From: Psammoneis japonica
Lineage: Eukaryota
DNA length: 64,000 nucleotides
Direction of reading: 5' to 3'
Assembly: GCA_008632985.1 (NCBI GenBank)
Contig: QPGO01000015.1
Location: 187,998 to 251,997, forward strand
Shown: in pieces, positions 12,844 through 58,870 of the stretch
How the letters are laid out: each line of letters opens with the position of its first letter
Numbering within the stretch: the stretch's first letter is position 1
Notes under the pieces: generated by a model
What the model was told of the DNA's origin: nothing
Database searches by the model: none
The model's input: the letters and a program-made list of their open reading frames with translations, nothing else
Made by a program: the position numbers and the translations under genes

Positions 12844-13557
12844 TACTCACTTTCATCGTCGAAACACCAAGGGTACGACTGCAAAGCAGATATACTGTAA
12901 GTGCAACGCGTGGGAACAACAACGACAAAAACAACAGCAAACAGCGAAACAAATAATACTGTAAGATGCGGACGATGACGCGAGAAGCGCTCTTGCACAT
13001 GCGGACAGACGTCGGAGGGAGTTTTTGATTTTCAAAATTTATGTCCGTCCGGCGTTGCACGTGAAAAGCTACAAGCACCGACGGCGACCGACAGATGAAC
13101 AGGCACGATCCCGAACCAGAGCACCGCACACGCACACTGTTGAGCTGCTCTCTAGCTAGAGCTGCGTAGAGTCTCTGCCGATGCCAGCACCGTAGGCAGT
13201 GGGATGTCTTTCGGAGCGCAACCCTTGAAAGCTCATAAAAAGAGCTCGATCGCGAGTGCAGATTTTTGGAGCTTTGGATTTGGGGGATGACTCTCCTCGA
13301 TCTGCCTGGACAGCTGCTTGTGCTTTCCACAGGAATTCCGTCCTGCTCCTGTGGAAGCATGAACAAAAAAGATGCTCCAGATTCTGTCCAGGCACTGCTC
13401 TCTGTCTCTGCTCTAGCCCCACAGTGTGCTGGCTCTAGAGCCAGCAGTGGCTCTCTGCTCCTCTTGGGAGAGAGGGTTCATCGAAAATGACCAAAACCCC
13501 CAAAACGCACTGATTGACCAACTGATTTGGTCTCCAGCTAGAGCACAAATTCAGGCA

Positions 13558-37433: not shown

Positions 37434-37629
37434 GGCTCTGTGCCACTTGGAAGTAGAGTGGGTGAGGTTTTTCATCGCGAAGTTTCGTGTCGTCTTTCGC
37501 TGCACCGATTTTAAAAGCATCCTCTAGTTAGGCTGTTGTGGTCGACAACTAGTTTCTATGAAAATTAATGTGACTTTTTAGTCGAATTCTCACGGTCTGT
37601 CAGATTTTAAAATCTTTACACGGATTTAA

Positions 37630-38990
37630 GGGACTAAAGTAGGAAACGCATTCATTAACAAAAAAACGCTCTCATCATCGAATGGCAGTGTCAACGGGAA
37701 AAATGCAGTCCTCTTCGCGTGCGAAAAAGAGACGAGCAAACGGAGAGAAAAAGAGCAGAGAAGAAGGAAAGAAATTAATGATGCTGACCCAAAATAAAAT
37801 TTGCGGACCAGCCAACACTCGTCTTTGTGCCCCCACAAACATGTGTGGTGCCATGCTGCACCCAGGGTCGTGGCATTTTCAGGCACACCACTTCTCATGG
37901 CTTTTTGGTTGGCAAGAAAATTTGGTGAATGGGTTCACAGTTGTTGGTGGTGTGGATGCATTGCAGAAAAAGGGCTTTTGCCACAGCATGCCAAAAGGGG
38001 ACAAATTGTGCCACATGGGCAGAAGAAAAGCAGCGACTTCTTGGCCCACCCCTTTTCCAGCTGGGACCCCAAATGTCTTGGATGTCATTCTTTGAAAAAT
38101 GGCCACCAACAGAAAGTGGCAATGTGGAGTGTGTGACTTCATTCAAGCCCACACCTCCAACAAAGTGCCAGTGTGCAGCATGTCAGCTGCTGCGCTGCTG
38201 TGGTGGCAACAGGTTCAATGTCTCTTTGCTTTCTGCTCACCCCCTTCTCATGTCAAGTGCTGCCTGGCCAGCAAGTGCAAAATTTTTGCAGATGCCAAAG
38301 CTGCTGCTCTCCTTTTGAGGGCAAAAAAAATCGCGACAGCAAGAGAAAGCAACGCCGCGCCTCCAACAAAGTGCCAGTGTGCAGCATGTCAGCTGCTGCT
38401 GCCGCTGCTGTGGTGGCAACAGGCTCAATGTCTCTTTGCTTTCTGCTCACCCCCTTCTCATGTCAAGTGCTGTCTGGCCAGCAAGTGCAAAATTTTTGCA
38501 GATGCCAAAGCCGCTGCTCCTTTCAATGGCAAAAAAAATCGTGACAGCAAGAGAAAGCAGCGCTGCTCAAACACTCGTGCTGAATTTCCAGCTGGGGCTG
38601 GCTCTCCTGCTGCTGCAGTGACCCAAAAAAGCCAGTGGTGTGCAGGGAGAAATGAGCAGCAGGCATCCCAGCACTTCTTCTCTGTGTCAATGTGCGCCCT
38701 CGCTTTGCTGCCCTTCTCCCATCTTGGCTGCTCTGACTTTCAGCGCTGACAAAAATGAAAAAAGCAAAACAAAAAAAAAGCAGTGCCAGAGCTTTGCCAT
38801 GGCCACCCTTTGCTTTTTGCCATCACCAAGTTTTGCAAATGAGGCTGGCACAACTTGAACACGCAGCGCGTGCTGGCGGCACTTTGGCGGCCCGGAGCAC
38901 CCAGCGTACACATGCAAAAAAGAAAAAAGAGAGGCTTTGGTGCTTGGTGCCACCCGACCCACTTCAAGCAATGTCGTCGCAAATCCTGCG
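37630..38990. mobile_element. TpA-depleted repeat relic of unknown family
   Basis: Almost no TA between ~37810 and 38880; internal tandem duplication; no recognisable protein. Confidence 0.5.
38154..38560 (+). repeat. Two tandem copies of a ~206-bp unit
   Basis: CCTCCAACAAAGTGCCAGTGTGCAGCATGTCAGC... starts at 38154 and again at 38360. Confidence 0.95.
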
Positions 38991-39206
38991 CACAAATCAA
39001 AAAAGTCATAGTCATAGATTCTTCCTGTAAGAATGACTTCAAAATGCCCGAATGTCTCGGTCATAGTTCACAACCTAAATAATTGTAGTAGTTTCTCCGT
39101 CATGGTCATTGTGAAGAATGTCCCCAAAGACGAGGCACATTATTTTCGCCACAAAACCAAAGAACCATAAAGCGCACCACTCTCTGGTATCACGAAACTG
39201 AAGACC

Positions 39207-40163
39207 ATGAAAAGTACTCAGCGTCTAACAGCAACATCTCCTTCTGTCAGAGAGACTTCAAAGATAGATAAAGATGAAATCTTGGTTCGTCTCAAGGTCA
39301 TGCAATCACAGGAAGAATCAGCGACATATCGCTCCGCTGACTACCTTGGAGAAAACATGTTTTCGTCCAAATTTCGAGTAGACGAAGTTTGCCGTCTAAA
39401 AATGTGCCAATGGTGCTATCAGATTGTGAATCAGTGCAATCTTCAACGTGAAACTGTTGCTTTTGCCATGTCATACCTGGATCGATACCTGAGTACGCCA
39501 TCTGGAAGACACGTTTTATTTCAGGTTCGTCTATACCAACTTGCAGCTATGACTTCGCTTTATACTGCAATCAAGCTTCACGAGCCAATTGCCTTAGAGC
39601 CATCGGTGTTGGTAGATATAAGTCATGGTCACTACATGCTGGAAGAGATTGAAGAGATGGAGACCAGGATGCTCTTTTCGTTGAATTGGTTTGTGAACGA
39701 TCCTACCCCACAAGGCTTTGCAAGACTGATACTGTCACTTTTTCCAGACACGGTCGAGCTAGAATTGAAGGACGAGATTCATCGGAATACAATCTATCAG
39801 TTAGAACTTGCTGTTGCTCACTACGCCCTGTCGGGTACGAAGCCGTCGTCCATTGCTGTTGCTGCCGTTGCGAACGCCCTTGAAAGCGTTGAAAATGAAA
39901 AGATGAATTCAAGTATGAAGGAAGCGTTCTTGATCAGGCTCCAACAACAGTTCGAATTCGAGTTGAAGAGCCTGTCATATGTTAAAGCATCGCTAGGGCT
40001 GATTCTCCGCGGTGCTCAAAGTGATTTCGTTGACCAGACCAACTTTTGTCTATCTCCTCCTATCTCCAACCAAAGCGACATGTCTGGTTGTACTGGCGAG
40101 GCACTAGCCTCGAATACTTCAAGCCCTGTCTGTGTGCTGCGGGGTAGGCGAACACCCCAATGA
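39207..40163 (+). CDS. Cyclin (diatom-specific cyclin-like)
   Basis: Cyclin box CRLKMCQWCYQIV..LQRETVAFAMSYLDRYL..YQLAAMTSLYTAIKLHE..ME..ML..L.W..N.PTP. Confidence 0.93.
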   Translation: MKSTQRLTATSPSVRETSKIDKDEILVRLKVMQSQEESATYRSADYLGENMFSSKFRVDEVCRLKMCQWCYQIVNQCNLQRETVAFAMSYLDRYLSTPSGRHVLFQVRLYQLAAMTSLYTAIKLHEPIALEPSVLVDISHGHYMLEEIEEMETRMLFSLNWFVNDPTPQGFARLILSLFPDTVELELKDEIHRNTIYQLELAVAHYALSGTKPSSIAVAAVANALESVENEKMNSSMKEAFLIRLQQQFEFELKSLSYVKASLGLILRGAQSDFVDQTNFCLSPPISNQSDMSGCTGEALASNTSSPVCVLRGRRTPQ

Positions 40164-40435
40164 ATGATCTGTCATTCCCGGTTTCCTCAACATCGCTGTC
40201 AGATGAAAATCTGTACCTATTGCATAACTGATCATAAATCAAAGTCAATCAAATACAGTATTTCTACTGGGTCGTTTCAGATACACACATTCCAGCAACG
40301 ACAGAAAGCTCTGTCCGTTTTGCTGTTACGCACAAGCAAACGTTTCCATTCACAGTCCATACGGTAAACCGGCATGTCCTAATCTAATAAAGAGATCAAG
40401 GAACTTGAAAGCAACGCCGTTCGCGTTCTCGTCTT

Positions 40436-41098
40436 CTACTCGGCCCGAGATTTAGTTTTACTTGCCTTGAACTTTGGCCTCTTCGACCTCCTGGTGGTCA
40501 CTCGTTATGGTCCCTCTAGAGTAAGTTCCACGTCTTGAGTTTCCTCAGCTTGATTGGACAGAGTTTCTTCACCCGGGGGTTCATCAAAGGAATCTACAAT
40601 CTCCTCCAGGTGCGTTTCCATGTCTTGTTCAGGCGAAGGCTGCTGTGGTGGAGGAAGAGAGGTCTGAGACGATGCACTCTGCTCCGATTCACGAGACGTA
40701 TTTTCCGGTTGATCTGTCGACGACGAAGCCCCGACTTGTACTTTGAATACGGACAAATCTAAAACGACAAAAACAATAGAAATACCCATTCTTGTTAGCT
40801 CGGTCATGCTGATCAAGAATGAAGTCACTTTTCATCAGGATCTCACCTAGGGGGACCTTTGACTTTGGATCCAGCGCAAGAGCTACCAAATGCGGATGCT
40901 TTGAATTCTCCGATTGATATTTTCGTTTAAGCTGCTTCCTGCTGCGACTCTCAAAAAAGGACGCCATCGTCGCAAAGTCGGTACCAACCTGTCGCAATGC
41001 GTGGTAGAACAGTTTTGTCTCTTCTACAGTCCAGTGTTGCGGTGCCCGTCTAGAAACAAATGAATGATGAGAGGCTCCCACAACCGCAGTGTGTGATT
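40436..41098 (-). pseudogene. 5'-truncated duplicate of the BDP1-like gene
   Basis: Near-identical to 54882-55558 but breaks at 41098; premature stop near 40506. Confidence 0.85.
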
Positions 41099-44000
41099 GT
41101 TGCCGGCATTTTCTTATTCGTGATGACTTGATGTAATTCGACATGGTACTGTATGGAAACGTCGAAAATACCGTAGAGGTTTCGGTATGTGTCGTGGAGG
41201 ATTGCAATTATTGTTGATAAGGCAGTAGAAAGAAGAGAAGCAACTCCAAACTGCATTGTTGTTCGTTTCCAAGTACAGTGCTGTACTGCATGTGTGTCTG
41301 TGTGTACCGTATTACTCTAATAGTCTAATCTAGCATCCCCTTCGGTCGGCATTCTGATTAGTCTAACTTTTCGCGCCTCGTGATTTTCGCGTTGTTGAGT
41401 CAATCGCTGTGTCTCGGATAAAGAAACCAGCATGTTTTGGAACGCTTGTCTCTTACTTCAGTGGCACTTGGTTAATTGTTTAGAACATTGCGATGTCACT
41501 GAGATTGTGGTGGGTCACCAGCCCAATCACACTGGCAACCACTGTTTTCTGACACTCACCAGATGATTCAGCCTGGGGCAGCTTGCAATTTTGTCACTGG
41601 TGGTTTTGTGTGAAAGGATTTTTGACTGAACTTTGTCACTGCTTGTCAGCAGACTCTATCTGCTTACATTCCACCTGAGGCATCACTCTAAAAAGGACAT
41701 CCAGGTGATGCACTGGTGAGGCACTCGGAGCTCAGCTCAAGCTCCTTCCTCGAGCTGCAGCTGGTGGCGGTGTCACCTCACCCAGTTGAGTTAACCTGAC
41801 ACATTCAAGCCTTCACTTGGGGATGCCCAGACTGCTTGCAGAGCAAATGTCCACCACTCTGATTCTGTCAGTGCAAGAATCTGAAATTGCATCCAGCGCA
41901 AAGTTCGAGAGAGCTCCCCCCCAAGAGCTGGCTCCGCCAGCTGACTTTGAACAACATCTGCTGGTTCCGCCAGAAGACTGACCACCAGGTTTTCCAGTCT
42001 GCCCCTTGTGCCACCATCTTGGGCTCTGCACCACCCTGCAGCCCTTTTGAGACCCAAGAGAGCTCTTTGAGCTCACTTGTCCCAGCTGTAGATGACACGT
42101 TGGCCTGGTTCGACAGCATCGAGTGACCTGCTGGCAGCCATGGCTGGCCCAATCCTGTCAAGAGCCAGCCTCCACCGCAAGATCCTCTGCCTCCCCAGGA
42201 CAACAAGGGCACAGTCAGCTCTTCTGGGCTGCTCCCATGTGCCCACAATGATGATGAGGATGAGTCGTCTGATGATGAATCTGATGACGAGGGCTCCATG
42301 TGACCAGCTGACCGCTGTGCCATGCAATGCATGGCCACCATTTTTGCCATGGCACAATGCCCAAGACCAAGCCCAAGATCTTCAAGCCCAAGTCTCCCAA
42401 TGCAGGAGAAGTTGTCATTGCCAGCTCTGTGAAACAGGTGGCTTGGTCCAGGGGCAAGCCCAAGGCCAGCTGGTGTGGACTCAACCCCGCTGTTGCCACC
42501 ACTGCTCCCATGTCACACAATCAGCACCGCTCTTGCCATGTCCCAATCACACTCAAAGAAAAGCAAAAACTGTCAAACTGCTGGATTTTTTGCCAAGTTT
42601 GCATGCAAGGGAGATCTGTCAGTCTTTGAGAAGAGCAGAGCAGATCATTTGAAGGACTGCAGTGTGGATGCAGTCACTTGGCTCAACCCAAACAACTTGC
42701 TCCATCACAGGCACCCAACATGTGCTCCAAGTCCAGCACAGCTGAGCTGGTGGCTCCACAGCTTGCCAAGTGCAACAGCCGTGCAGCACTGCCAATGATG
42801 AGAACACAACAACTGTGTTCCTCACAAACTTGATTGAACTGGATTGGGTCACCTGGCTCAACTTGAAAATTGAAGACTCGGACCCATTCCCAAAAGTTTG
42901 AGAGAGCACTCATTGTCATTCTCCAAAGCCTGTCATCATGTGCTTCAAGGGTTCAATCCCCCACAAGCCCTCACAGTTCTTGGGACAAGACCTTCATGAG
43001 AGCTCCCAAAAAGGAGTTTGAGGTTGTCACAAAGGAGTTGGATGTCACTGGGTGGTGCAACAACAAATTGATGCTGACTCTTGTCAGCTCATGTTTGGAA
43101 GCTGAAGGCTTTGGCAAAAATGTTCAGCAGCTCAAGCACATGCTGCAAACTTTGAAAGAATGGCTTGACAACATGTCACTTGCAATTTCTTGCAAGTCCA
43201 AGTCTGACACTGAGCACATTGCCTTGCATGTTGATTCTTGATGCAAGCAACAAAGGAGACCCCAGTTGAGCAGCAAAAGTGCTGGTTGAGCTTTCAACCA
43301 ATCTCCCAGTTGGGCGGGCCTGCTGTGCAAGTCTGGCAAGTCAACAAATTTGTGAAGTGTTTTGGCTGACTCCAACGACAATGTTGAGTGACAACCTCAA
43401 TCTCTCACCTGCTGAAAAGGAGCCACTTAATTGGTGCTGTGGCCTTGGACACTTGACCTTTGAAAAGGTGCAATTTTTGACATGTGCTGGTGTTTTGGCC
43501 AAGTCTGAAAGTGTCTGTCATCTCCACAAAAGACTCTGTCAGCTTGATCATCCTTCTCTCTTTGCACTGCTTCCCACATCATCATTTGAGATCAAGAAGG
43601 AAGGAGCCTTGAAGAAAGAGCAGCTGCCCCCCCCTGAAAATGGCACCCACCACTGATCACTTTGTTTGTTCTGTGTGCTTTTTTGTCTGAAGCACACCTT
43701 TGGAAAAGAGGACACAAAGCATCAGCACTCAAGTGGTGCTGCTGTCTTTGTGGCCATGTGCCAGGTGCACAAATGTTTGACATTGAACTGACCTTAATTT
43801 CCATGAGACACTTCAAGCCACAAAATGGATTTTGAGGCCCATCATTGTGGCTTTGGCATCATTCCCCAAGCACATTTGAGCAAAATGACAGAAAGGCTCT
43901 CACTTTAGCTGATTTTTGCCAAGTCCACCTTGAATCTTTCACTGAAGTGTCAAGGTGCATCAGCACTGGAGCCCACCACCACAAAAACCAAGTGTTGCTG

Positions 44001-47000
44001 AATGTGCCACACATGCTGTCATGTCCATCACAAGGAGTGTGGATGCTGCCCTGTGGCCATTTGCCATCAACCACATGCTGTCCTGCTTTGCAGCACCATG
44101 CCTGGCCCTTCTGCTGATTGAGTCCCCAGGACATCTTTGCCAAGATGCAATTGCCAAGTGCTTTCAGGGCTGTCATGTTTTTGAGGTCACCCCCAGTTTG
44201 TGTTCTGGACAACAAAGTTGGCAATGGTGGCAGAAAGAAGTTGCCTGAATGGTGCAGCCCTGCACAAGCTGGCATGTCTGTGTGGGACTCAGCTCCAAGC
44301 ATGCATTGTCAGCCCCACCAGTCTTGAGTCTTGAAACTGGGGGCATCTCTCCACTGTTTCACACCATTTTTGACAATTTGTTTGCTGCTGTTCCTGTTGA
44401 GATCCAGACTCTCTCCCTGCCATTGGATCTCTAAAACAGACCACTTCCTTTGGAGACAGCACACATCAAGCAATGCATGCTGTGGACAAGGAAGACCAAG
44501 CAGAACAAGGAAGACCAAGCAGAAGTGAGTGCAAGTGTTGTGTTCTTGGGGAGTTGCAGATGCCACCACCCCACAGTTGCCGCTGGAGAACCTCTTTGAA
44601 TGGCTCCTTTGGCAAGCCAGGCTTCACCATCTCCACCCAGCCCACACCCAGTCCTCCTTTGGCATTGCCTGCACCCATGGAAAGAACCAACTCTCACCTT
44701 TGTTGGAGTCTTCTGCTGATCCTGCCATCTCAGACAATTTGCCTCAGAAGGAGAATGATTTGTGGGCCCTGCAATGTCTCCAAGTCCACAGAGGGAGCCT
44801 TCTGCCCCTCAAAATCTTTTCTCTCAACTCAGTCAAGAGAGGGAGGAGTTCCCTGCTGCACACCTCAACAGAGGGAGCAATGCCCCTCTCTCCCATTCTT
44901 CATGTCATTCAACCCAACAAAATCCCACTGCTCCCCAGCACCGTGGGTGCAATGGAACACAAGGAAGCAGACAAATCATGGCTCACTTTGCCAGTTTTCA
45001 TTGTGTCCACAAGTTTGATCATGGCTGCAACATTTCCATGCCCCCACTCCTTTGGCACTTGAGCCTTTGGTTGGCACCACACAAAATCAAGAATCTGCTG
45101 GGTGCCTTGTCATGAAAAGACAAAGCTGTGCAAAGCCCCAATTGCAAGAAGTGGCTTGACTTGGCCAAGATGGAGGTTGGCTGCACTGCCCTTGTCCATC
45201 AAGGAATGTGGTGGGCTGAAGCACCCACATCCAAAGCCAAACCAAGATTCTCCCCAACACTTGAGCATTTTGTTGCAAACTGTTGCCATCGGCTGAGATC
45301 AAGAAACTCAAGAAGGCTTGCTGTTGCTGTCATGGTGATCTTCAAGAAGAGGGAGTCTCCCCAATGCTTGTGCTCCTGTGGCTGCTGCATTGAGTGCTGT
45401 GCATTTGTTCCTTGTCTTGGTTGAGGAGTCTAATCTTGAGCTGGTCCACAGCACTGGCAGATTTTCAGCTTGGATTCATCAAGTCTGCCAAAGGTCTCAG
45501 AGTTTGTCTCAAGCTTGTCAAGAGTCTCTGTGAACTCTCCCACTCTGCCCCAAAATTGTTGTGTGAGCATTGTCCACGAGCCTTCCTTGACACCTGGAAT
45601 TTGTCCAGAGCAAGCATGATCTGCACCTCCTGCTCTGATCTATGATTGCCTTGTTGTGTGCATGCAGGTCAACAACTGTGGCATCATTGCAGTGCAAGAG
45701 CCCACCATCAATCAAGTGATCTTGCAGCTGTGGAGCAAAGGACTCAATCAAGAAAAAGACAATTGGTTTTTCATCAAGTTGTTGTGGGTTGATTGAGAAG
45801 ATCCTCTCAGCCACAGGAATGAAAGAGACTGCAGGCCCAATCTGCTTCCTGCTGCTGCTTGTCTGCAACATGTTTCTGTGCTTGACAAGAGCAGACCTTG
45901 TCAATTTAAAAAAAAAATTGCATGCTTGCCAATTGTTTCCACAGATCTTCAATTTACACAATTGTCAATTTTGTTTCTTGTCAGTTGTTGAGTTTGCCAG
46001 TTTTAAGTTGCCTGTGTGACTTGTTTTGTCATGCATTTTACAAACTTAAGTCTTTGTGCATTTTTTCTCTTTTCCTCACATTTGTGAGCTCTTTCCCTTT
46101 TGTTTTGCTCTGCTTCTGCCACATCTGTCCTTTTTTCCCACTGCACACCTCACAACCCATCCTCCAATCTAACACTTGGCAAATGGCAATGGCACGCCAT
46201 TGTCATGATCCACTCTGTCCCGGTTGGATGTCTGACAACAACAACCAGTGCACTCTCCACCGACATTTTCAAAGGTGTCCCCAGTGTTCTTCTTTCCTCC
46301 ATTTTGGCCTCAACAATGCATCTCCTTCTCCTGACCACTCCCTGAGCAACAGCGGTGCCTCCAGCTCTCTTGATGCATCAGGGCCTCTCCATCATTTCCT
46401 TGATTCAAGCACCAAAGGATCAATGTCCCTGTCTCTCCAGGATGGTGATTTGTCACACCTTTTTCCATTTCCTCCTGCCAGTGATCAATCCCAATGAACT
46501 GGGGGGGAGATTCCCCCTTTAATGACAACGTTGTTGATGCACATCACTCGCTGGATGTGGAAGAAGTTGGTGCTGGCTCTCTTGCTTGAGACCCACCCGA
46601 TGATCATTTCTGCTGTGACAATGTCCTTTTTCTGGAGGAGGAGTTCAATCTTCTCTCAGCACATCATTCTCACTCATCTTCTTCCCTCTCTGACAAGGAC
46701 AACATCAACAATCATGATGATGATGGGCTTGCACTGCTTTGATCCACTGGATTTGGAGGAGATGGAAGAAGCTCAACTGCTGGAACCTCCATGCATTTGT
46801 GAAACCAACACCACCAAAAAGCTTCACCCAGTGGAGGAAGAGCAGGTTAGGATGACAAAGAAGCATCATCTGTCTCACGGTTTGTGCAAGGATTTTCTTT
46901 CCTTGGCCAAATGCGCCAAGGAGAGTGGCTGTGAGCACAAGTCTTTGTCTGGCTCCACGGCCTTGTGATGCATGAAAACAAAGCATGCCAATTGTGTGGG

Positions 47001-49599
47001 CCTGGAGCACCCATTGTTTGCTCCACTGTGCATGTTGGACCCGTGTTCCCCCCAGCACATGTGTGCAGATTTTCCTTTCTGCATTGTGTGAGAAGGCTGT
47101 TCTGCAATCCCGAGGTTGTCCAGCAGCGTCAGTGGTCATGCCATAAAAAGTGCTGCCCCAAAACAAACAAGTGCATTGGCAACTCCCTTGACACTGGAGA
47201 CTGGTGGAAGCAAGCTTGGTGTGATCTCAAATGTTCCCTTGCTGATTTTGGCAATGGCTGCTCTTTTGGGTCTCACTTTGTTGGCCCAGTTGTGTGCTGT
47301 TTGACAATTCCACCCCATGTGACAACACAGGTCATCTGCGAGCACAACCCGTCCTTGCAACATTGGGCAATTTGAGTGATGAGAGTTGCTGCAGCCACTC
47401 CCTTGGCCAACACTTGGAATGGTGCTGCCACACCCAAAGACAAGCAATGAGTGCACCTGCTGCTGACCATCAGCCAAAGCTTGGACAGGAGACATGCATC
47501 AAGTTCCACCACAGCATGTTGTGGGAGACATTGACCAAGTTGCTTCAACTGTCAAAGCAAAAGACTGGTTTCCCAATTGTGATGCCATCTCTTGGCTTTG
47601 TCCATCTTCACTTTTGATTGTGCATGACAGTTGGCAATGCAAAAGGTCACAATGACATGGCTTGTCACTGCAACTCCCAGCATTCTGGCAACACATCTCA
47701 GACAAATGGGGGCTGTGACATGCTCAACACTTTGGTGACAATCCCTTGTTTGGCTGCAATTTGGTGGAAAAAGATGGCATCCAGGGGACAGCGGAGGCTG
47801 CCATGACAGCCATGGAGGAAAGGCACCACAGCAAAGTGACTGCAGCTTGTGAATGGTGCAAGGACATTTCACAGAACTTGGCTCATCCTGTGTTTTGGGA
47901 CCTCCCTCATGGTGGAGGACAGCATGGCACATTTGGCATGCTGCCCTGGGAACTGTTGCACGCCCTTTGCTTGAGCCTTTGCAAGCACCTCCTTCATGCC
48001 TTCTTCAACCTGTGCCAAGACCCAGAAAACAAGTTGTCATGGCATCATGACCTTTTGGTGATGAGGAATGCACAATGGATGACTGACTGTCTGGCACACT
48101 CAAGGAGCTTCCCAAGCCATTTGACAAAGCTGAGTTTGAGAGATGATTCAGAGTTGCCACACATGCATCCAGGAGGCAAAGTGATTGGAGTGAGCAAAGA
48201 ACTCCATTTGAGAATGGAGTTGCCAACCAGACTCATCCGTCTGGCCAAGAGCATGTCTTTGGAACTGGATGTGGCATTGTCCCTGTCATCAAACAAGGAA
48301 ATCCTTCTCACTCGGCTGCAGAAATGCATTCTCAAGCATCTGCAATTGTTTCAATTTGTTGTCGGCCCATTCTGAGAGTGTTGTTCTTGGTCTGGACTTT
48401 GTGCATCCAAGCTCCATGGCTTTTTGCACTTTCTGTTTTACACCCATCAGTGCGGCAATGCCAACAATTTTTTGGGGGGGTTTCTGTGAAGCTCTTCTTG
48501 GGACACTTCAGAAACAACCTGCTAAAAAACCAGTCATTGGCTAGATGGGATTGGCCTTGATGTGATGAATCATTGCTGTGAGGAGGACCTTGTTGCAAGG
48601 GAATCAGAAAAGGATTTGTTGGATGCAGGTTGGCTGCATGAAAAAGATGATCAGGCTCCTGCACCCCAGCCATCAAATCATGGATGCACAGACCCTGTCA
48701 CAGGATTCAAACCACTCAAATCTGCAATGACAGCCACTCGGGCCACAGACGCATCTGGCAACAATGCCGCATGGTCTGCAAAATGTGGAGATGAACAGCT
48801 GCAGAGACCTTCACATCCCTGTTTGTTCCAGGCAATTGTGGCAATGAGTGGGTGGCATCTTTGCTCCATCATGCAGAACATGATGATGCCTTCCCCGCTG
48901 AGCTTGTGAACTTTCACTTTGGACATGATGCTCCGGGCCCTGGGGATGATGAACATTGCATTTGCTCCAACAAGATGCCACCCAAACTTTCACTCACATT
49001 CCATGGAAATGAAGGAGTTGGCACAACTGGGCACCACAGTGAAGTGGGATGAGGAGCAAATGAGCTGTTCGGTCACAGCTCGTGTGTTGTGGGTGACCTT
49101 AGAAGATCAAATGATGGAACAAAAATCTGCAGTTTTTGCAATTCAATCACTTCAGAGCTTCACCCCCAACAAAGATTCTCTCTTGACCTTTTTCATGGGC
49201 AATGAAATGGAGTCAGAAATCAGAGTTGTTGATGCCAGGGACATGTTGTCTGCCACCTTTGTTCTTCCGTCAAACAAGGTTGCCACCATGAAAATGTGGG
49301 ACACAAGGTGAGGCACAAGAAGAGAAAGAGGAAATGAGTGTCAGATGCACAGAGCATGGAGCTCGGGCTGACAATGCAAATGACTGGCATTTTTGCGAAT
49401 CTTTGCACACAGACATTGTGATGCATGCTGAGGCAAAAAGGGAGATGGGCAGCAGGGGCGGCACAAAGGTGAGTGGAAACAGTGTGAGAAACAAGCCATT
49501 TGGAAACAGAAGAGATGCAAAACTCTGGTCAATCGTGTGCTGTTTTCTCTTGTTGCAGGCAATGCTTTGGCCACCAAATGGGAAAAATGAAAGAGAGGC

Positions 49600-49692
49600 T
49601 GCAGCCTGGAATGGACACTCTTGGAAAGAGCTTGTGTGAACAGAGATTGCAGCCTGGAATGGACACCCCTGGAAAGAGCTTGTGCAGAGAGT
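49600..49692 (+). repeat. Two copies of a ~48-bp tandem repeat
   Basis: TGCAGCCTGGAATGGACAC.C.TGGAAAGAGCTTGTG occurs twice. Confidence 0.9.
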
Positions 49693-50195
49693 GACAGCAA
49701 CCACAAGGGAGGACACCATCATGACCAAAACACCAGGACACAATCATGCATGGATTGCAGAGGACAAAGGGGAACTGGTGGGATGTGCAAGAGAAAAACA
49801 AGAGTGGGGAACAGGAACCAAAAGAGCATCATTCAGTGCCAAAACAAGATGACAAAACCAGTGCAAACAAGCAGCACACAGCCACTGCACAACAAGGTCA
49901 ACACGGCTGATGCACATCATTGTTGTCAGACCTGAACAAATGCGCACTTGTTGAGAAAGACACAATTGCAAATCACAGGTTTCATTTGTTGTTGTTTCCC
50001 ACTTGGAAGGTCAGTTTGAACATGAACAGAAACACAACTGTTGTTAGAATGAGCAGCAATGGGGAATTGTCAAGATTGCACACACAATGAGACTGATTTA
50101 TTTTGAGCATTAAATCCCACTTGGAAGGTTAAAACAAGGGTTGAAGACCCTTCACACACAATCAATTGGCACTTGTTAACCTTTCAACCACCACA

Positions 50196-50659
50196 GAGCA
50201 AATCTCCATAGGTGGAGATTAGCTCCACTTGAGGAATTGTGATGTGTCAGCAATTCACATGATGATGCAATGAGCACAGCACAAAAATGTCACATCATGC
50301 ACAATCTGCACAAAATGCACCACATGCACTTGCTCATTGTGAGCAAATCTCCAGTGGTGGAGATTTGCTCCAAGGGTGTGGCACTTTTTGCTCTGTTGCA
50401 ATGACAGCTCATCACAAACTGGGTTGTCACAGGTTGAGATGCAGTTCCTCTCTGTTCACAGATGAAGCATGCAAAAAACCCGGTGTCAAAAGTTGACATT
50501 GAACTTTCAAAATTGCAAGAATGGTCCCCCAGTGCTCTTTCTGCAAATGCTCGTTCAAAACAAAATTGTGCAAAAATGTTTGCCGTGCATGTCCAAAAAT
50601 GTTTCATTTTGCACATTTGTGATGCAAGCAAGCAAATGTCCATGGGTGGAGATTTGCTC
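50196..50659. repeat. Three copies of a 30-bp palindrome
   Basis: GAGCAAATCTCCA-N4-TGGAGATTTGCTC at 50196, 50341 (perfect) and 50630. Confidence 0.9.
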
Positions 50660-53429
50660 AAGTCCGGTGGTTGAAGGGTTAAGAAAATGGGGTTCTCATT
50701 GAGTGCACATGAATTCTGAACAAGAGCCACACTGTTTTCCAGATGCTGGCCCTTCAAAATGGGAATGCTCTTGTGCCTGTCTGCTGACACTTACCCTGAC
50801 ATGTCTGTTGCCATCAACCAGATCACACAGCCCAACTCACCACCAAAACAGGTGCACGGCACTGTGTCCAAGACTCTGATTTGACACCTCAAGAGGACTT
50901 GCAACCAGAAAATGCCTCTGTCTCCCATGGGTCTTCTTGAACTTGACCTTCAGTGGATGCTGATTTTGCCAGCCCATTTCTCAGTGAGCCAGACACAGAT
51001 CTCAGTCTGGTGTGGTTGCACACCAGATGCTTGGTCACTCCAAGTGGCTGCCAGTTGGTCTGGAATTCACAGCTTCAGACAGCCTCTGTGTTCTCAACTC
51101 TTGAAGCTGAATGTCAAGCTGCATCCTGCACTCTTTGGACTCTCTTCCCATTGAAGAACATGCTCCTCTCAGAGGTGGTTTCTGTCCTTTTTTGTCTCCC
51201 AAGATCTCAGGACCCCTCTGTCTGTGCCTGAGTTTTCAAAGACAACCAAAGAGCCTTTTCTGTCTCGCTGCCAATTGCCACACTGCCAACCACACCAAGC
51301 ACTTCTCACCAAGCCATGCTGGTTGTGGGCTCACTGCAACGAGTTTGTGGTGTGGTCAAGGTGGAGTTGGCTGGCCAACTTGAGCAACTGATTGAAGAAG
51401 GCTGCTTCTCATGTTTGTTGCATGCTGTGGCTTGAGTCATGATGCAAGAGCTGTGCTCTGAATTTGTGCCAATTGTGCAAGAAGCTTCTTCATTTTTGCA
51501 AATTTTCAGTCAGTTGCTGGAATCTGTGAGTGAGAGGGAGAGATGTGGGCCCATTCACACATTTGTCCAGCAACCAAGTCTGCCCATGTGTCTGCTGCAC
51601 ACTTCCGTTGTTGGCCAGAGCTCAAACCAAAATTTTTTTGCACCACATTGACCCCATCATTGAGTTGGTCACTGTGTCTTGGTTGAGAGACCAGCACATG
51701 CTGAAACACTCATTTCTTGCTTCAGCAGTGCTTGGCCAATTATTTGGAACATTGTTGTCACTGGTGAGATTGTGCTGGGTTGCCAGCGCAGTGTTGCTCG
51801 CTGCATGAGCAACAATTGTTTTTTTCTGACACTCACTGGATTCAGTCCACATGGCTGACAACTGGTGACTGGCAGTTTTGTGAAAGGATTTTTGACTGAA
51901 CTTTGTCGCTGTTTGTTGGCAGACTCAATCCACTTGTGTTCTGCCTGATGCATTGCACTGGAGCAGACATCCAGGTGATGTGCTGGCAAGGTGCTTGGAG
52001 CCCCCCCCCCCCACACAGACAGACAGACAGACACACACACACACAAGCTTCAACTCACGGTGGTGAGCAGCAAGGTGCCACATTAAAACGCACACCAGCA
52101 GTGCTCTCACATCTGGCATCCAGCATGTCCAGCATCGGCACACTGCAACTGGACTGCAGCAGGCTGTCTCTGGAGAGCAAAGGCATGCATCATGCAACAT
52201 GGTCGGCCCTGTGAGAGGATGGCTCAGCTGCCCCACACAGTCTTTGCTGTTTGGCGCACTGGTGATGATGGATTCTTCTGGATGTGTGATCTGGACAACT
52301 GTGCACCGGCAACCAAAGAGCAAAAAAATGTGCCTGAAAGAAACTTGAGCAGGAAAATTCAAAAGAAATGACCCTTGACCCACCATTTTGAAATCATGGT
52401 GCAGACTTTCATGTGCAACAGAAAAGGGGAAAAGAGACGCCCTTCTTTTTGACTCCCTGGGCTGGTTCAACAGCTGGGCATGACTGGCTTTGCCTCAACA
52501 ACCACCACATGGGGGGTTTCTCTGTGCAAGCAACTTCACTCAATCAGCCAGGCTTCTGTTTCTGTCTCACAACAAGGCACTGCTGTCTCCTGCCTTTTGG
52601 GTCACCTGTCATTCTCTTGACAATCTTTGTCATCTCCTTTTGTTGTTGCTGTTGCCTGGCAACTGATGTCTGTTGATGCAATGCAACAGCAGCTTCAGAC
52701 CCAGGTTCTTGAGGTTTGTCTCAAGAGTCACCACCACAATCTTGCTCTGGCAGGGCACCCTTGACTGAGACTCAAGCAAGTCATGTCAAGCGTGCCGCAA
52801 AAGAGCCCAACTTGCAAATTTTTCAATCCACTCAAAATGTGTTTGAAAGATTTGTTGCTGTTGTCATCACATGCTTGTTTTGTGCTCCACAAACCAGTGA
52901 CAGGGCTGACCTTGTTGAGGGCAAACAGCAACCTGCCAAGGCTGAAGCAATGCAGGCCTTGAACAAACCAGCATGGTTGCACCACACCAGCCAGAAAAGT
53001 CACAAACTTGCTGAGGGATCTTTTGTTTTTGCCTTTTTGCACTGTTGTTTGAAGACACAACACAAACTTGGCCACACAAGCAAGAGGCACAATCATGGAG
53101 TTTTTTCCACCAACATTTGAGCTTGAGAAGCTCTGCAGTTAAAAAAGGAGCCAGCACTGCTCTTAAAAAACAAGTTGAGGTGCCAAGCAGAAAGAAAGAC
53201 AAAGGTGGCTCTTGCAATGAGATGCCAGCCAACAACAATGAAGTTGGAAAAACAGGTTGTTTGAGCTGCCATCTTTCTTGATTCTTTTCTTTGGCAACAG
53301 GTTGAAGGTGGGCTGGGCTGGGAAATGCAAAATCCAAAAAAACAGCCCACAAAGAACTGCGCCACAGATTCACAAGAAAACGTCAAAATGATGCCATCAT
53401 GGTGGCCAGGGAGCTTTGCACCACCTGCG

Positions 53430-54603
53430 TTCCTGCAAGAGCAACTTCAAAATGCCCCAATGTCTTGGTCTTGGCTCCTCATGCCCTGAACAACAGCCGC
53501 AATTTCTCTGCAATGGTCACTGTGAGCAATGCCCCAAGAGGCACATGTCATTTTTGCTGCAAAATCAACAGAGCCACAAAAGTGCACCATCCAACTCTGT
53601 GGCATTACAAAATTGAAAACAATGAAATGCACCCAGCAGCATCTGACATTGACAATGTCAACATCTCCTCCTTGTGTCCAAGAGACTTCACAGACAAAGT
53701 TGAAACTTGGCTCTTCTCAATTTTGCACTGTCAAAGGAAGAATCAACAACATGTTGCTCTGCTGGCTGCTGAGTGACTTGGAGAAAACATCTTTTCTTCC
53801 AAAGTTTGAGCAGACAGAGCTTGTCATCTAAAAATGTGCCAGTGGTGCTGTCAGATTGCAGGTCAGTGCAATCTTCAATGTGGAGCTGTTGTGGTTGCTG
53901 AGTCACACTTGGATCAATGCCTGAGTGTGCCACCTGGCAGACCTCATGTTCTGTTTCAGGTTCATCTGTTCCAACTTTGTAACTCACTTCACACTGCAAT
54001 CAAGCTTCATGAGCTAATTGCCTTGCAGCCATTGGTGTTGGCAGAAATCAGTCTCATGGTCACTGCATGCTGGAGAGAAGAGATTGAAGAGATGGAGAAC
54101 AGCTCACGCCCTTTTCTCTCAATTGGTGTGCAAACAACCCTGCCCCACACGGCATTGCAAGCCTGATGCTGTCACTTTTCCCAGACACAGTCGAGCTGGA
54201 ATTGAAGGATGAGATTTGTTGGATCACGAACTGTCAGTCAGAGATTGCTCTTGCTCACTGCGCTCTGTCGGGTGCGAGGTCGTCGTCCATTGTGCTGTTG
54301 CTGCCATTGTGAACCCCCTTGAAAGCATTGAAAACGAAAACATGAATCAAGCACAAAGGAAGCGTTCTTACTCAGGCTCCAACAACAGCTCGAATTCGAG
54401 TTGAAGAGATGTCACATGTTAAAGCATTGCCAGTTGGGCTGATTCTCCACCGTGCTCAAAGTGATTTCGATCACCAGACCAACTTCTATTTATCTCCTCC
54501 AATCTCCAACCAATTCGACATGTCTGGTTGTATTGGCGAGGCACTATTATCGAACACTTCAAACCCAGTCTGTGTGATGCGGTGTAGGCGAACACCCCAA
54601 TGA
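53430..54603 (+). pseudogene. Hypermutated cyclin duplicate, including upstream sequence
   Basis: Collinear with 39020-40163; has frameshifts and systematic TA and CG changes. Confidence 0.93.
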
Positions 54604-54881
54604 ATGATCTGTCATTCCTGGTTCCTCTGGGAAGGCATGTATATCGCAGTCAAATGAAAATCTTTAGCTATAACTACTCACAAATCAAAGTCAATCAAAT
54701 ACAGTATTTCTACTGGGTCGTTTCAGATACACACATTCCAGCAACGACAGAAAGCTCTGTCCGTTTTGCTGTTACGCACAAGCAAACGTTTACAACACAG
54801 TCCATACGGTAAACCGGCATGTCCTAATCTACCAAAGTGATGAAGGAACTTGCAAACAACGCCGTTCGCCGTTCCCGTCTT

Positions 54882-56220
54882 CTACTTGGCCCGAAATTTA
54901 GTTTTACTTGCCTTGAACTTTGGCCTCTTCGACCTTCTGGTGTTCGTTCGTTTTGGTCCCTCTAGAGTAAGTTCAACGTCTTGAGTTTCCTCAGCTTGAT
55001 TGGACAGAGTTTCTTCACCCGGGGGTTCATCAAAGGAATCTACAATCTCCTCCAGGTGCGTTTCCATGTCTTGTCCAGGCGAAGGCTGCTGTGATGGAGG
55101 AAGAGAGGTCTGAGACGATGCAGTCTGAGACGATGCACTCTGCTCCAATTCACGAGACGTATTTTCCGGCTGATCTGTCGACGACGAAGCCCCGACTTGT
55201 ACTTTGAATACGGACAAATCTTAAACGACAAAGACAATAGAAATACCCATTCTTGTTAGCTCGGTCATGCTGATCAAGAATGGAGTCACTTTTCATCAGG
55301 ATCTCACCTAGGGGGACCTTTGACTTTGGATCCAGCGCAAGAGCTACCAAATGCGGATGCTTTGAATTCTCCGCTTGATATTTTCGTTTAAGCTGCTTCC
55401 TGCTGCGACTCTCAAAAAAGGACGCCATCGTCACAAAGTCGGTACCAACCTGTCGCAATGCGTGGTAGAACAGTTTTGTCTCTTCTACAGTCCAGTGTTG
55501 CGGTGCCCGTCTAGAAACAAAGGAATGATAAGAGGCACCCACAACCGCGGTGTGCGATTCTTCTTCCACCACATGCTGGAATTCCTCTTCCACTTCTTGA
55601 ACTGGGACCCGTGCACCCGGGACAACCATACTGGACTCCTGTAACACAATTTCTCCATTGATAACCTGCACAACCGGCCCACTTGAAGTTACTGCAGCTT
55701 CTGCTTGAGCTGCGTCTGGAACCGGCTCGGCGGCCGCGTTCTCCTTTTGCTTCTGACGTTTCTCCTTCGAACGGAACTTGCTACAAAAAGCCTGTAATGT
55801 GTTTTGACCAGGTAAGGCTGAGGGAACATCAGGCTCCGGAACGACAGACGGTTGCGCAACAGCAGTTCCATCCTCTTGTGCGACTTCTTCATCGTGCTCT
55901 CGTACCGGACGAGAGACACCAATGGCCACCCCGGTTGACGCCTTGCGCTTTTTCCCTCCGCTTCGCCGCGGCGCTTTCGCCAGTGAAGAATCATTTGTAA
56001 CATTAGAGCTTACATCTTGATCTTCCGAATCTGGAGGTTGTTCGTTTGATGTATCTTGATTATTCGAGAGTACTGATGCTTCCTCCTCAACGTCCTCGCT
56101 GGGAGGTGGAGGGGCAGCGGTGACCACAGAAGTGGGAGGATTTCTGGGTTTTCGTTGGTTGGCGGGGCGGAACGTCGGTCGACCTTTCCTGCTACTTTTG
56201 TTCGATCTGTTGCTAGACAT
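54882..56220 (-). CDS. BDP1: TFIIIB B'' subunit (SANT-like domain), intron 55220-55307
   Basis: GPVVQVINGEIVLQESS, WTVEETKLFYHALRQVGTDF..M..FF..RSRKQLKRKY..E. Confidence 0.85.
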
Positions 56221-56436
56221 TATAGCTCTCTACAGATCCTCAGCCTCAGTGCAGAATACCGGGCAGCATCATTGTGGATTTTGCGTTTTGCGGCGTCGGC
56301 TTGTCGGCTGAAGCACTGCGATGTGGCGGCCGGGCGGCCGGCCGGCATCGCGTGCGTCGTTGCGCGTGTTGCGGCGCGCTTCGCCACGATCTACTGTTTG
56401 CCGTCCCAGCTCCATGATGCCACGTGTAAAAATTAA

Positions 56437-58870
56437 CCCCCCGTTTTTAAGGCATTCGCAGAACGAAGGGGTGTAGGCACGACAATTTGATTTTTCAGGA
56501 TTTTCTACTGTACGAGAAACGCGTAGCGCGATACGCGCCTCGTCACCAAAAACAGGCGACGTGACGGTGGTGCGTTGTCGCAACGACAGCGATGACAGCG
56601 ACGTGCCCCAGAGTCTTTTGTCGTTGTGGACATTTGGTTCATTGAGTTTACGAACGTGTTCAGTCATGAAAGTCCCCGGGAGCAACCTCTGTTCGAAAGC
56701 AAAATGTCACACCAACAAGGAGCTCTGTTTTTCGACGATCGTTCAATGCACTCGATTGTCGAACGACTGTGAGTTCGTGCGGGGGACTTTCTTTGCATGT
56801 GTGTGTTCTCCACAGTGCAATTGATTAATGTGTCAAGTGCCTGTTGCAAAGTCGTCCTCTGTCAGCATCTGAAAATTGTCATCGTCATCGTCGGCGTCGA
56901 CGGCAATTTGTCGCGCAAATCGCAAAAAATGCACGAGACAGTCGTCTGGCTGACACTGCGCTGCTGTGCGCTCGTTGTGCACATGCCTCAACCAAACACC
57001 CACCTCGATCGACTAACAGCATGCAGATGCGAAGTTCAGCACCCTTTTTGGGGCCTAGAATGGGGGTGGACGTCAGTCACTTGCCAATCACTGAACATTG
57101 ACTCTCACACTTGCCCGTGTGACAAAGGTGCTCCACGAAAAGTCAGCTCTATTTTGAAATGCCAGATGCCATGAACAATACACACTGTACCTATTACATT
57201 CTCGCAAGACATCGGTTTAAAGAGCATGAGACCGATGATGCTCATATCTTGAGCATTTTATGGCTCTACTAGCGGGGGTCAAAGTCTAGCTAATTCTTCC
57301 AAAAAACTCGAGTCGAGTGGGTCATGCGGGATTCAAGACACGTGACTCACCGTACGTGAATTAGATGATAACATCAACACAAGACCTATTTCATGGCTAT
57401 ATGGAGTTACGACTAGCACAATGTGAACTGTAAAAAACGTCCCGAACACTCGTATCGCATTTTTTGTACATCGATATTTAACGATAACGGCTTTTAGCAA
57501 ATAATTAGGGCATTTTTACAGATGTAACCCATACAATTTGTAGTCAAAAATGGATACTTGTAACACAATTAGAAGATTTTTTAAATGTTTCCTATTCAAA
57601 TTCAGACTCAAATTTTGATATTACTTTTTCAACTCCGACTGCTTCATAATCAATAAACAAGTTCGGATGTTTTATTAAAAGACGTGGCCGGCGTTTCGGT
57701 CCATTTTGGCGGCTACGACATTTGAATTTACTTAACACCAGACATTTCTATAGGGCTTCAGTTCGTAGAGCAATAAATACGTAGACTGGTACAAATTCTA
57801 CAGCAGGAGTCATGTGCAGTCATTTTACATACCAATCATTCAGACATTTACTATATATTTAAATACAAAGTATTCAGTTTGTAATAGTCTATTTTGCACA
57901 TTGTGCTAGTCGTAGCCTCACATTCTATTCTCTAATCCATGGCTGGCCTCGTGACAACTATATTTGACCTTTTTCATGCTATGGATGGGCTAAGTAATCC
58001 ATAAAAACTCAACACAAGCAGCACACTTCTGTTTTCACATTTGACATTTGTGTCTTTGCGATCAATCTAGAGCAGATGCAAGCCAGGGAGGAGCTCCACT
58101 CACTGACATTTATGACCCCACAGAAAAACATCATCAGAACAATTTTGTCAACATTGTTTGACTGCTTTTTTGTTGAACCATGCGCCAGCATCATTCTTCA
58201 TTTTCACTCCAATCCGCCCGACTCTCTCCTGTTCAAGAACACTTGGCTGAATGCATTGCAGCTGCTTTGTCAAAGTCTCACAAATGTTCGTCTGTTCAAT
58301 GCCGTTGGTCAAATGGGATAGATGATGTGACAACGACGTTGGATTCGTTCATGTGCTCATGCTGGGAAAGACAACAAGAATTGGCTGCGGCGGCAAGAAA
58401 GTTGAGTGAGACAACAAGTGGTGAGCCTTGGACACATTGGCAACACAATTTTGATTTTAAATTTACTTGCCTTTTTACAAACTCGGACTTTAACACATCG
58501 GGTTCCGAAAATCCGGCAAATGGTGAGTTGGTGCGTCCTCTGCATGCAACATGGCGTCACGACAAAGCGAAGCGGTGTGTTTCAACATTTCTCGCCAAAC
58601 TGTGCGTCTCCGAATGGATGATTACAACGGTACATCGATGAGGGTCTAATAGAGCTTCTATTGTAATGGTCCAAAAAACGACGAATGTTTAGACACCTTA
58701 TCTACCGCGTCAATGTCATCGTCGGCTCCGGCGGATTTTTGACAATTTCTCCGTGTTGTCACCACGGGGATGGTCTGTACGCTCAACCGGAGCGCGCCGG
58801 CCATGTCAGCTTGAAGTTACTTAAGGCCTGGGTCTCATAACTGTATGGCACGACTCGTGAAATGCGGCCG
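56437..58870. mobile_element. Mosaic repeat region: TpA-depleted patches (~56655-57150 and ~58010-58620) around an AT-rich unconverted segment
   Basis: Begins TTAA|CCCCCCG, like a piggyBac end. No credible host ORF. Confidence 0.4.

Follow-up and report, generated by a model that had tools for sequence, protein, structure and literature searches.

Why should one of two copies of a gene have lost nearly all its TpA dinucleotides? The question is raised by a 64,000-bp stretch of the diatom Psammoneis japonica (assembly GCA_008632985.1, contig QPGO01000015.1, positions 187,998 to 251,997, forward strand), hereafter the window, which contains a duplicated segment carrying a cyclin gene, intact in copy A and decayed in copy B. 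An initial annotation, made from the sequence alone, had described the decay of copy B at 53430-54450 as a 'reverse' form of the RIP process of fungi (repeat-induced point mutation), with TpA becoming TpG or CpA. Analysis of the window revealed that this stretch is affected and that the effect covers three domains (D1, D2 and D3), ~17 kb together. All results rest on this one 64-kb window of one genome; within it, we have high confidence in the reality of the signature and in its local targeting.

One copy of a duplicated cyclin segment is hypermutated

Self-BLAST of the window identified one large duplication (A 39022-41101 versus B 53430-55562, 84.3% over 2,159 columns), which purine/pyrimidine coding lengthened to 38966-41098 versus 53375-55559 (91.5%). 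It involves the following features:

38966-41098, plus strand: copy A, an island of normal composition with an intact diatom-specific cyclin and a truncated Myb copy
39207-40163, plus strand: intact cyclin of copy A (Pfam Cyclin_N, E 8e-16)
40689-41207, minus strand: truncated Myb copy in A, 172 aa
53375-54460, plus strand: left part of copy B, a hypermutated cyclin pseudogene at the right margin of D3, with two in-frame TGA stops and several indels
54461-55562, plus strand: right part of copy B, the unmutated rest of the duplication, used as internal control
55150-56220, minus strand: full Myb-like gene, 356 aa (Pfam Myb_DNA-bind_7, E 5e-22), whose 3' part overlaps the right part of copy B

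The left part of the alignment (A 39022-39940, B 53430-54378; 904 aligned bases) showed 78.3% identity, with 139 transitions and 57 transversions. The 39 TpA of copy A correspond in B to 18 TG, 15 CA and 5 other dinucleotides, a single site being kept; 38 were thus changed, 33 of them to TG or CA. The 39 CpG of the same part followed a similar course (14 TG, 13 CA, 5 other, 7 kept), that is, 32 changed and 27 converted to TG or CA, in agreement with the CpG loss already noted in the initial annotation. Its manual count of about 24 changed sites among ~31 TpA had captured the same effect and underestimated it, and the two surviving sites that it named, CTAA and TTAA, were correct.

Retention then rises along the duplication. 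In the middle part (A 39941-40240), 7 of 12 TpA and 9 of 13 CpG are kept, whilst for the right part (A 40241-41095), which is 96.4% identical over 854 bases, the figures are 29 of 32 TpA and 43 of 46 CpG. Left and right retention differ with p = 2e-15 for TpA and 3e-13 for CpG (Fisher). Binned by 150 columns, the shift is gradual, with other transitions dropping from 17.5% at the left extreme to 0-3% on the right. At the domain edge in B, CpG is kept from ~54.2 kb and TpA from ~54.4-54.46 kb, so that TpA loss extends ~200-250 bp beyond CpG loss. The hypermutated stretch of B is continuous with D3 and stops ~2.4 kb past the right terminal repeat of that domain. Since copy A and the right part of both copies are unmutated, the process is positional and not triggered by duplication. 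Of the idea of a 'reverse RIP', the direction of change and the restriction to particular DNA are supported; a duplication trigger is not, as one copy only is affected, over the stretch that runs on into D3, and the remaining ~1.1 kb escaped change in A and B alike.

A recent duplicate that straddles a domain edge constitutes a natural polarised experiment from which relative rates can be derived. Calculated from -ln(kept fraction) in the left part of B, TpA loss is ~2 times CpG loss and, per adenine, ~16 times A>G in the other contexts of the same stretch; with the right part as baseline a higher factor would result, but gene conversion may affect that baseline. In its right part, copy B also carries a 15-bp tandem insertion relative to A (55108-55122), just 3' of the stop codon of the Myb-like gene.

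Direction of change

To assign polarity, copy B was translated codon by codon in the frame of A, and A was aligned with 60 homologues among the 120 listed. The intact cyclin has 199 relatives at 31-49% identity, and those named among the 120 matches listed are diatom proteins, including a 'diatom-specific cyclin' from Seminavis robusta. Of 318 residues, 103 are not the same in A and B; among the 99 of these that could be assessed, the homologues favour A at 63 positions, B at 11 and neither at 25. Tyrosines 41, 46, 71, 90, 94, 119 and 143, conserved at 92-100%, are replaced by Cys or His in B, the result of TAY becoming TGY or CAY. Because the homologues favour the residues of A and conserved Tyr became Cys or His in B, this comparison indicates that the residues of A and TpA are ancestral and that TG and CA are derived. 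The direction that the initial annotation had taken from the intact reading frame is thereby supported, and the opposite order, with TG/CA ancestral, does not occur. As for the segment as a whole, A is probably the derived duplicate, because the Myb-like gene is complete in B (356 aa) and truncated in A (172 aa), yet it is A that holds the working cyclin.

Three domains depleted of TpA and CpG

The domains were first seen in sliding 1-kb windows, and their limits were set by TpA-free gaps:

13540-17292, no strand: domain D1, 3,753 bp, 4 TpA (observed/expected ratio, o/e, 0.02), CpG o/e 0.40
37796-38906, no strand: domain D2, 1,111 bp, 0 TpA, CpG o/e 0.34
41793-54014, no strand: domain D3, 12,222 bp, 36 TpA (o/e 0.04), 80 CpG (o/e 0.11)

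The loss is mirrored by a gain of the expected products, with o/e values of 1.86 for TG and 1.73 for CA in D3 and TpG/CpA at ~1.7-1.9 times expectation in 1-kb windows of the domains. The background, defined as the window minus the domains and minus 600 bp on each domain flank (43,314 bp), has o/e values of 0.62 for TpA, 0.99 for CpG, 1.11 for TG and 1.12 for CA, and the remaining twelve dinucleotides of D1 and D3 all lie between 0.80 and 1.23. All three TpA-poor domains are also CpG-poor, and elsewhere no 1-kb window has a TpA value below 0.3 or a CpG value below 0.5. For comparison, diatom metagenome contigs near cyclin genes gave TpA o/e values of 0.49-0.86 and TpA-free runs of at most 244 bp (16 contigs, 126,405 bp). 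This control was drawn from 215 pattern matches, 182 of them confirmed, in 80 loci, of which the 16 of at least 2.5 kb were scanned and the 64 of at most 2.1 kb left out; it stands for genic diatom DNA and is not evidence of absence, repeats assembling poorly.

These values bear on the simplest alternative, in which no special process operates and an old pseudogene and old repeats decay neutrally, CpG through methylation and TpA by chance or through selection on composition. CpG decay alone would indeed be ordinary in methylated DNA. We nevertheless give this reading a negligible probability: the longest run without TpA measures 2,464 bp, with a chance of ~e^-101 at the background TpA frequency, TpA was lost faster than CpG, the right part of the same duplication is still 96.4% identical, and the 16 diatom contigs (126 kb) hold no TpA-free run above 244 bp.

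Erasure of TAA and TAG leaves TGA as the only stop codon in D1 to D3 and produces long spurious open frames on both strands, such as one of 356 aa at 16148-17215; these frames lack Tyr and are rich in Cys, His, Trp and Gln. The domains escape annotation by protein homology, and the frames are a trap for gene callers.

Strand behaviour and sequence context

Counted per strand-site in the left part, A>G occurred at 34/76 TpA, 17/148 ApA, 14/133 CpA and 15/136 GpA (TpA versus the 46/417 of the other contexts, p = 6e-11), which establishes by computed alignment the enrichment at TpA on which the initial annotation had made its claim depend. C>T occurred at 27/77 sites before G, 15/132 before A, 4/63 before C and 9/109 before T, i.e., 27/77 at CpG against 28/304 elsewhere. 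Non-CpG C>T is flat over 5' neighbours (0.13-0.16), and an APOBEC-like action is disfavoured on these values.

The sites that survive reveal a further preference. YTAR accounts for 26 of the 40 remaining TpA, but for 326 of 1,780 background sites (odds ratio 8.3, p = 2e-10). The excess of TTAA is 7.2-fold, and no survivor lies in ATAT or ATAC. An independent check agrees: at sites with T-A-Y on one strand only, it was that strand that changed in 14 of 17 cases (14 versus 3, p = 0.013). By strand-site, A>G reached 16/23 in TAC, 10/23 in TAT, 5/12 in TAA and 3/18 in TAG, and outside TpA it likewise prefers a 3' pyrimidine (32/185 versus 14/234, p = 3e-4). The favoured site is the A of 5'-T-A-Y-3'.

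Error-prone repair synthesis of the DNA polymerase eta (Pol-eta) type, changing WA to WG in repeatedly damaged or deaminated heterochromatin, had been among the mechanisms listed in the initial annotation. TpA is the strongest Pol-eta hotspot, and transversions and other transitions are raised in the domain. The context counts nevertheless make it very unlikely and remove it from the mechanisms retained, ApA (17/148) being no higher than CpA (14/133) or GpA (15/136); moreover, the 3'-pyrimidine preference seen here is not known to be part of the WA rule.

Both strands were changed, and changed independently. Over A 39022-40000, TpA resolved into 18 TG and 17 CA and CpG into 15 TG and 13 CA, with no clustering of outcomes along the sequence (strand runs: 17 versus 18.5 expected for TpA, 15 versus 14.9 for CpG). 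Because of this independence, a single strand-specific event and the editing of RNA or of a single-stranded intermediate are excluded. Repeated sequences led to the same view, in particular the pair of direct repeats that resemble long terminal repeats (LTRs) at the two sides of D3:

41342-41735, plus strand: left LTR-like direct repeat of D3, only partly mutated, pairing with 51611-52005
51611-52005, plus strand: right LTR-like direct repeat of D3, fully mutated, pairing with 41342-41735

Between these repeats, 23 double flips of TG to CA or the reverse were counted, against 2.9 expected from column shuffling, a number reached in 0 of 2,000 shuffles. The left part of A and B shows 11 such flips against 2.6 expected, and the right part none. 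The same ancestral site was therefore resolved independently in two copies.

Read support for the bases

The bases themselves were checked against 37001-57000 with a sequencing run, X1, which contains 92% of the sampled words of 46500-56400, together with two smaller runs of the same sample; no RNA run was listed for 46500-56400. Contigs of X1 built from exact 31-letter words (mean depth ~55-70) match 41105-45889 with one other letter and two gaps and 50656-54613 with no other letter and two gaps; further pieces bridge 37001-38183 and 38482-40173, and every domain edge within 37001-57000 is spanned at single-copy depth. The initial annotation had called for support by raw reads, and contigs derived from reads at ~60x give the same sequence.

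Modified DNA miscalled in a long-read assembly, with 5-methylcytosine (5mC) read as T and a modified A as G, could in principle imitate the signature: long-read consensus miscalls at methylated motifs are transitions of this type, and TG and CA outcomes are about equal here. Such an artefact is strongly argued against by the contigs and we regard it as highly improbable. Exact-word contigs at this depth, which give the same sequence and bridge the edges, are not expected from noisy long reads; in addition, the domain contains indels, transversions and the 23 flips, and a later tandem duplication in D2 copied the TG and CA states.

A few positions differ between the contigs and the window. At 38047-38048 (D2), 47056-47057 and 47536-47537 the read contigs have TG where the window has CA, the first of these at single-copy depth; it could represent a haplotype in which the same ancestral site was resolved on the other strand, and this would hint at recent activity. 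The run contig has an additional C after 54409, where copy B lacks one base relative to copy A, so one apparent frameshift of B may be an assembly or haplotype difference.

Repeats and candidate identity of the domains

The D3 repeat pair aligns over 382 bases, with 94 transitions and 32 transversions; its identity is 66% in plain letters but reaches 88% when bases are coded as purine or pyrimidine, and it encloses 9.9 kb, as in an LTR element. Self-comparison identified repeats in the other two domains:

13552-13697 and 17155-17302, direct orientation: direct repeats of D1, ~150 bp
38149-38358 and 38355-38566, tandem: tandem duplication of D2, ~206 bp

The D1 repeats nearly frame the depletion: its left limit lies 13 bp ahead of the left repeat, and its right limit falls 10 bp short of the right repeat's end. 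The two D2 units agree in their TG/CA state (21 TG=TG, 22 CA=CA, 1 flip), and these shared states indicate that the tandem duplication arose after the mutation. Beyond the pairs reported, purine/pyrimidine self-comparison detected no homology between the domains, in a setting where a reversed-sequence control scored up to 135.

Read depth adds to this picture. Summed contig depth is ~345-530 over 45.7-48.3 kb and ~2,400 over 50.3-51.0 kb. By this measure 45.7-48.3 and 49.7-51.0 kb are multi-copy, so parts of D3 belong to repeat families. Where the copies in the contigs differ from the window, they do so mostly by transitions (208 places, against 78 with transversions). The high-copy stretch at 56344-57000 (summed depth ~2,840 versus ~60 for single copy), ~2 kb from D3, is AT-rich (GC ~0.39-0.48) with normal TpA; since it is not hypermutated, a high copy number is not enough by itself to attract the process.

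Protein families were sought with Pfam in 101 stop-to-stop frames of at least 90 aa, none of which scored above cut-off (three chance-level rows, E 0.006-0.01), and in a second set from 41735-53400 (141 frames, minimum 55 aa), again with none above cut-off and 25 frames with sub-threshold rows. Blanks of this kind are weak evidence, since frame 53810-54163, which covers ~80 residues of the cyclin box of B, was missed too. One sub-threshold row serves as a lead:

43270-43653, plus strand: GAG-pre-integrase-like frame (PF13976, E 0.026, 14.8 bits against a cut-off of 28.4), sub-threshold and a lead only

GAG-pre-integrase is the sole mobile-element family among the sub-threshold rows of the 141 frames, and its place and orientation are plausible. 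A row for the OTT_1508-like deaminase in D1 (16174-16782, plus strand; E 0.0097, 16.3 bits against a cut-off of 27) is at chance level, in stop-poor hypermutated DNA. On repeats and depth, we regard D1 and the core of D3, with moderate confidence, as decayed LTR-type elements. Directly after the right LTR-like repeat, at 52006-52050, a C-run is followed by (CAGA)n and (CA)n microsatellites, and CA/TG-rich hypermutated DNA may act as a seed for microsatellites.

If retroelements are involved, their transcripts might have been edited from A to I by an ADAR-like enzyme before reverse transcription and the edited copies integrated, a route suggested by the LTR-like repeats that bound D1 and the D3 core. 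It appears extremely unlikely. RNA editing predicts A>G on the transcript strand within the element, whereas TG and CA were found in equal measure (18 and 17) and without strand runs; the two terminal repeats of one insertion diverge from each other, and the change runs 2.4 kb into a flanking host gene copy. Finally, ApA is not raised, unlike what the weaker neighbour rules of ADAR would give.

Genes of the window

Pfam scans of the long open frames identified an ATP-citrate lyase, an EF-2-like GTPase and an HSA-domain protein, along with a cytochrome-b5 fatty-acid desaturase, an amino-acid transporter, the Myb_DNA-bind_7 protein and the cyclin. By this Pfam content, the window is a eukaryotic nuclear region. 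Imperfect tandem repeats of ~95 bp (78-82% identity) occupy 10077-10426, at the end of the amino-acid-transporter frame.

Proposed mechanism

We consider it reasonably probable that the domains are silenced, mobile-element-centred chromatin in which two context-specific transition processes have gone nearly to completion, adenine deamination at TpA and 5mC deamination at CpG. The first would convert TpA into TpG or CpA by acting on the A of 5'-T-A-Y-3' on either strand, at single sites over many generations; adenine would become hypoxanthine in DNA and be copied as G. The enzyme may be TadA/ADAT2-like, or another nucleic-acid deaminase, recruited to repressed chromatin. The counts follow the site rule of TadA/ADAT2-like enzymes (5' T, UAC favoured), a resemblance in site preference only. 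The second process would be the deamination of 5mC at CpG in the same kind of DNA that is marked in diatoms. Two studies place diatom 5mC largely on transposable elements that also bear H3K9me2/3 and H3K27me3 (PMC9998398, PMC12344493), and on account of this restriction and co-marking the CpG half is most simply read as 5mC deamination and the domains most simply as heterochromatin. Each domain would be fixed by position and not by duplication, centred on elements bounded by direct repeats and spreading up to ~2.4 kb outward; such spreading would have destroyed one duplicated cyclin copy and spared the other copy and the adjacent Myb-like gene. The data establish the signature with its polarity, context, domain limits and read support; deamination, the class of enzyme, chromatin targeting and any role in defence are inferred.

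The main rival to a deaminase is a modified base at TpA in silenced chromatin (5-hydroxymethyluracil or a J-like T, or N6-methyl A) that mispairs or is mis-repaired to give T>C or A>G, as the initial annotation had also proposed. TpA is self-complementary, so a maintenance-type mark on both strands is possible, as for 5mC at CpG, and the changes are indeed strand-symmetric. However, A>G outside TpA follows the T-A-Y preference as well, which is easier to understand for an enzyme that reads the neighbours of A, and we know of no such T modifications in diatoms. We therefore judge the modified base a serious but rather unlikely explanation. From the list of mechanisms first put forward, the TadA-like deaminase and the modified base are the two that remain.

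Several observations weigh against the deaminase explanation or the foundations on which it is built. First, the same pattern would arise from a T or A modification that mispairs. Secondly, non-TpA transitions (~11%) and transversions (~6%) in the domain are ~5 times those of the right-hand control: the process may not be purely TpA-specific, or heterochromatin may be more mutable in general, or repair of the lesions may contribute, or gene conversion may have homogenised the right part, the left being simply older. The last of these would lower the rate ratios but not the context specificity. Thirdly, island A is normal in spite of its position 240 bp away from D3's left repeat and ~100 bp from D2; possible reasons are a barrier, a recent arrival and selection. 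Regarding identity, the assignment to mobile elements rests on repeats and depth, with no Pfam domain above threshold. Regarding the reads, the library type of X1 is not on record, and X1 may be the source run of the assembly itself.

A broader proposal, which we put forward tentatively and as a rather speculative one, is that diatoms, and in view of Bigelowiella perhaps protists of the stramenopile-alveolate-rhizarian (SAR) group generally, possess a chromatin-guided DNA adenine deaminase acting at 5'-T-A-Y alongside 5mC and irreversibly destroying silenced mobile or foreign DNA. If true, this would amount to a counterpart of fungal RIP on the A side, directed by chromatin domain and not through the recognition of repeats, and to a natural adenine editor of double-stranded chromosomal DNA able to turn neighbouring host genes into pseudogenes.

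Comparison with known systems

Like the process in the window, fungal RIP inactivates repeated or mobile DNA by dense transitions, can leak into neighbouring genes and leaves a dinucleotide signature. The direction is opposite: RIP makes TpA from CpA by C>T, whereas TpA is destroyed here and C>T at CpA (15/132) is not above other non-CpG contexts. The trigger differs as well, since RIP marks both copies over the duplicated length and here one copy is affected, only where it adjoins the domain. RIP is thus a functional analogue that fails the tests of direction and of duplication-dependence. CpG decay through 5mC likewise yields TpG or CpA, as found at 27 of 39 sites, but explains the CpG half only; TpA loss is faster and reaches further at the edge. 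The APOBEC enzymes of vertebrates offer another precedent, a host deaminase whose hypermutation of mobile DNA is visible in the genome; they act by C>U on single-stranded cDNA in a strand-biased and clustered manner, unlike the strand-symmetric changes described here.

The natural tRNA target of TadA and ADAT2, A34, follows the universal U33. According to one source, the sites of TadA-dependent editing in E. coli read UACG, so that a Tyr codon (UAC) becomes one for Cys (UGC); editing in fungi that is ascribed to ADAT2/3 requires U at -1 and prefers A or G at +1, and ADAR has only a weak neighbour preference (PMC10027721). The strict 5' T/U, the rank of TAC as best context here (16/23) and the Tyr to Cys changes of copy B are features shared with TadA/ADAT2. 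The fungal +1 preference, as far as that source presents it, is opposite to the 3' pyrimidine found here, and TadA and ADAT2-ADAT3 act on RNA hairpin loops. For chromosomal DNA, the only reported cases are ADAT2 of amphioxus and of trypanosomes, cited in a 2026 preprint (10.64898/2026.01.13.699255). Iyer et al. 2011 described stramenopile-specific deaminase families and suggested that they may edit RNA or mutate DNA (PMC3239186); the stramenopile families they name include a Rossmann-fused LmjF36.5940-like one and deaminase-SAM-Tudor.

The closest precedent comes from the same preprint, by Mettrop et al., on the integrated giant-virus and virophage DNA of the chlorarachniophyte Bigelowiella natans, for which adenine deamination is proposed (10.64898/2026.01.13.699255). 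In the text available, 231 of 302 nuclear single-nucleotide mutations of mutation-accumulation lines fell in two integrated viral regions; nearly all of these were A>G/T>C, those all at TpA, at ~6e-7 per site per generation, and the genome holds 124 clusters of TpA-poor windows rich in CpA and TpG. Both systems show A>G/T>C at TpA giving TpG/CpA, confined to discrete nuclear regions with the rest ordinary. They differ in host, a diatom belonging to another branch of the supergroup, and in target, viral inserts in B. natans and, in the window, apparent decayed LTR-type elements with flanking host DNA, not recognisable viral inserts. Changes in B. natans are nearly TpA-only, and a lower level of other changes is seen here too. 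Depletion is near total in the diatom domains (rho 0.00-0.04), against 0.45 given for a B. natans viral region in the accessible text. CpG loss accompanies TpA loss in the diatom domains and goes unmentioned for B. natans in that text, in which the words 'diatom', 'stramenopile' and 'CpG' do not occur; the 3'-pyrimidine preference is seen here. The evidence is also of another kind, de novo mutation in lines for B. natans and historical comparison within one window for P. japonica.

The statement of the initial annotation that no description was known accordingly needs the preprint added and holds for diatoms within the searches made: full-text literature searches, with most subscription journals outside their coverage, returned no diatom report of the TpA signature, and term searches in the accessible text of Maumus et al. 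2009 (PMC2806351) and of 10.1101/2025.10.24.684338 gave no mention of deamination, RIP or dinucleotide bias. As far as these searches reach, local A:T>G:C hypermutation at TpA has this 2026 preprint as its single prior report, and the diatom case is new. Beyond what the accessible B. natans report contains, the window adds near-complete erasure, coupling to CpG loss, the T-A-Y preference, element-centred domains and spread into a host gene. That a diatom shares the signature suggests a genome-defence process of wider occurrence. Such domains matter for the annotation of diatom genomes, for the dating of transposable elements and for the modelling of mutation, and they can kill adjacent genes. 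The genetic tractability of certain diatoms would make candidate deaminases open to direct tests, provided that the species in question carry the signature.

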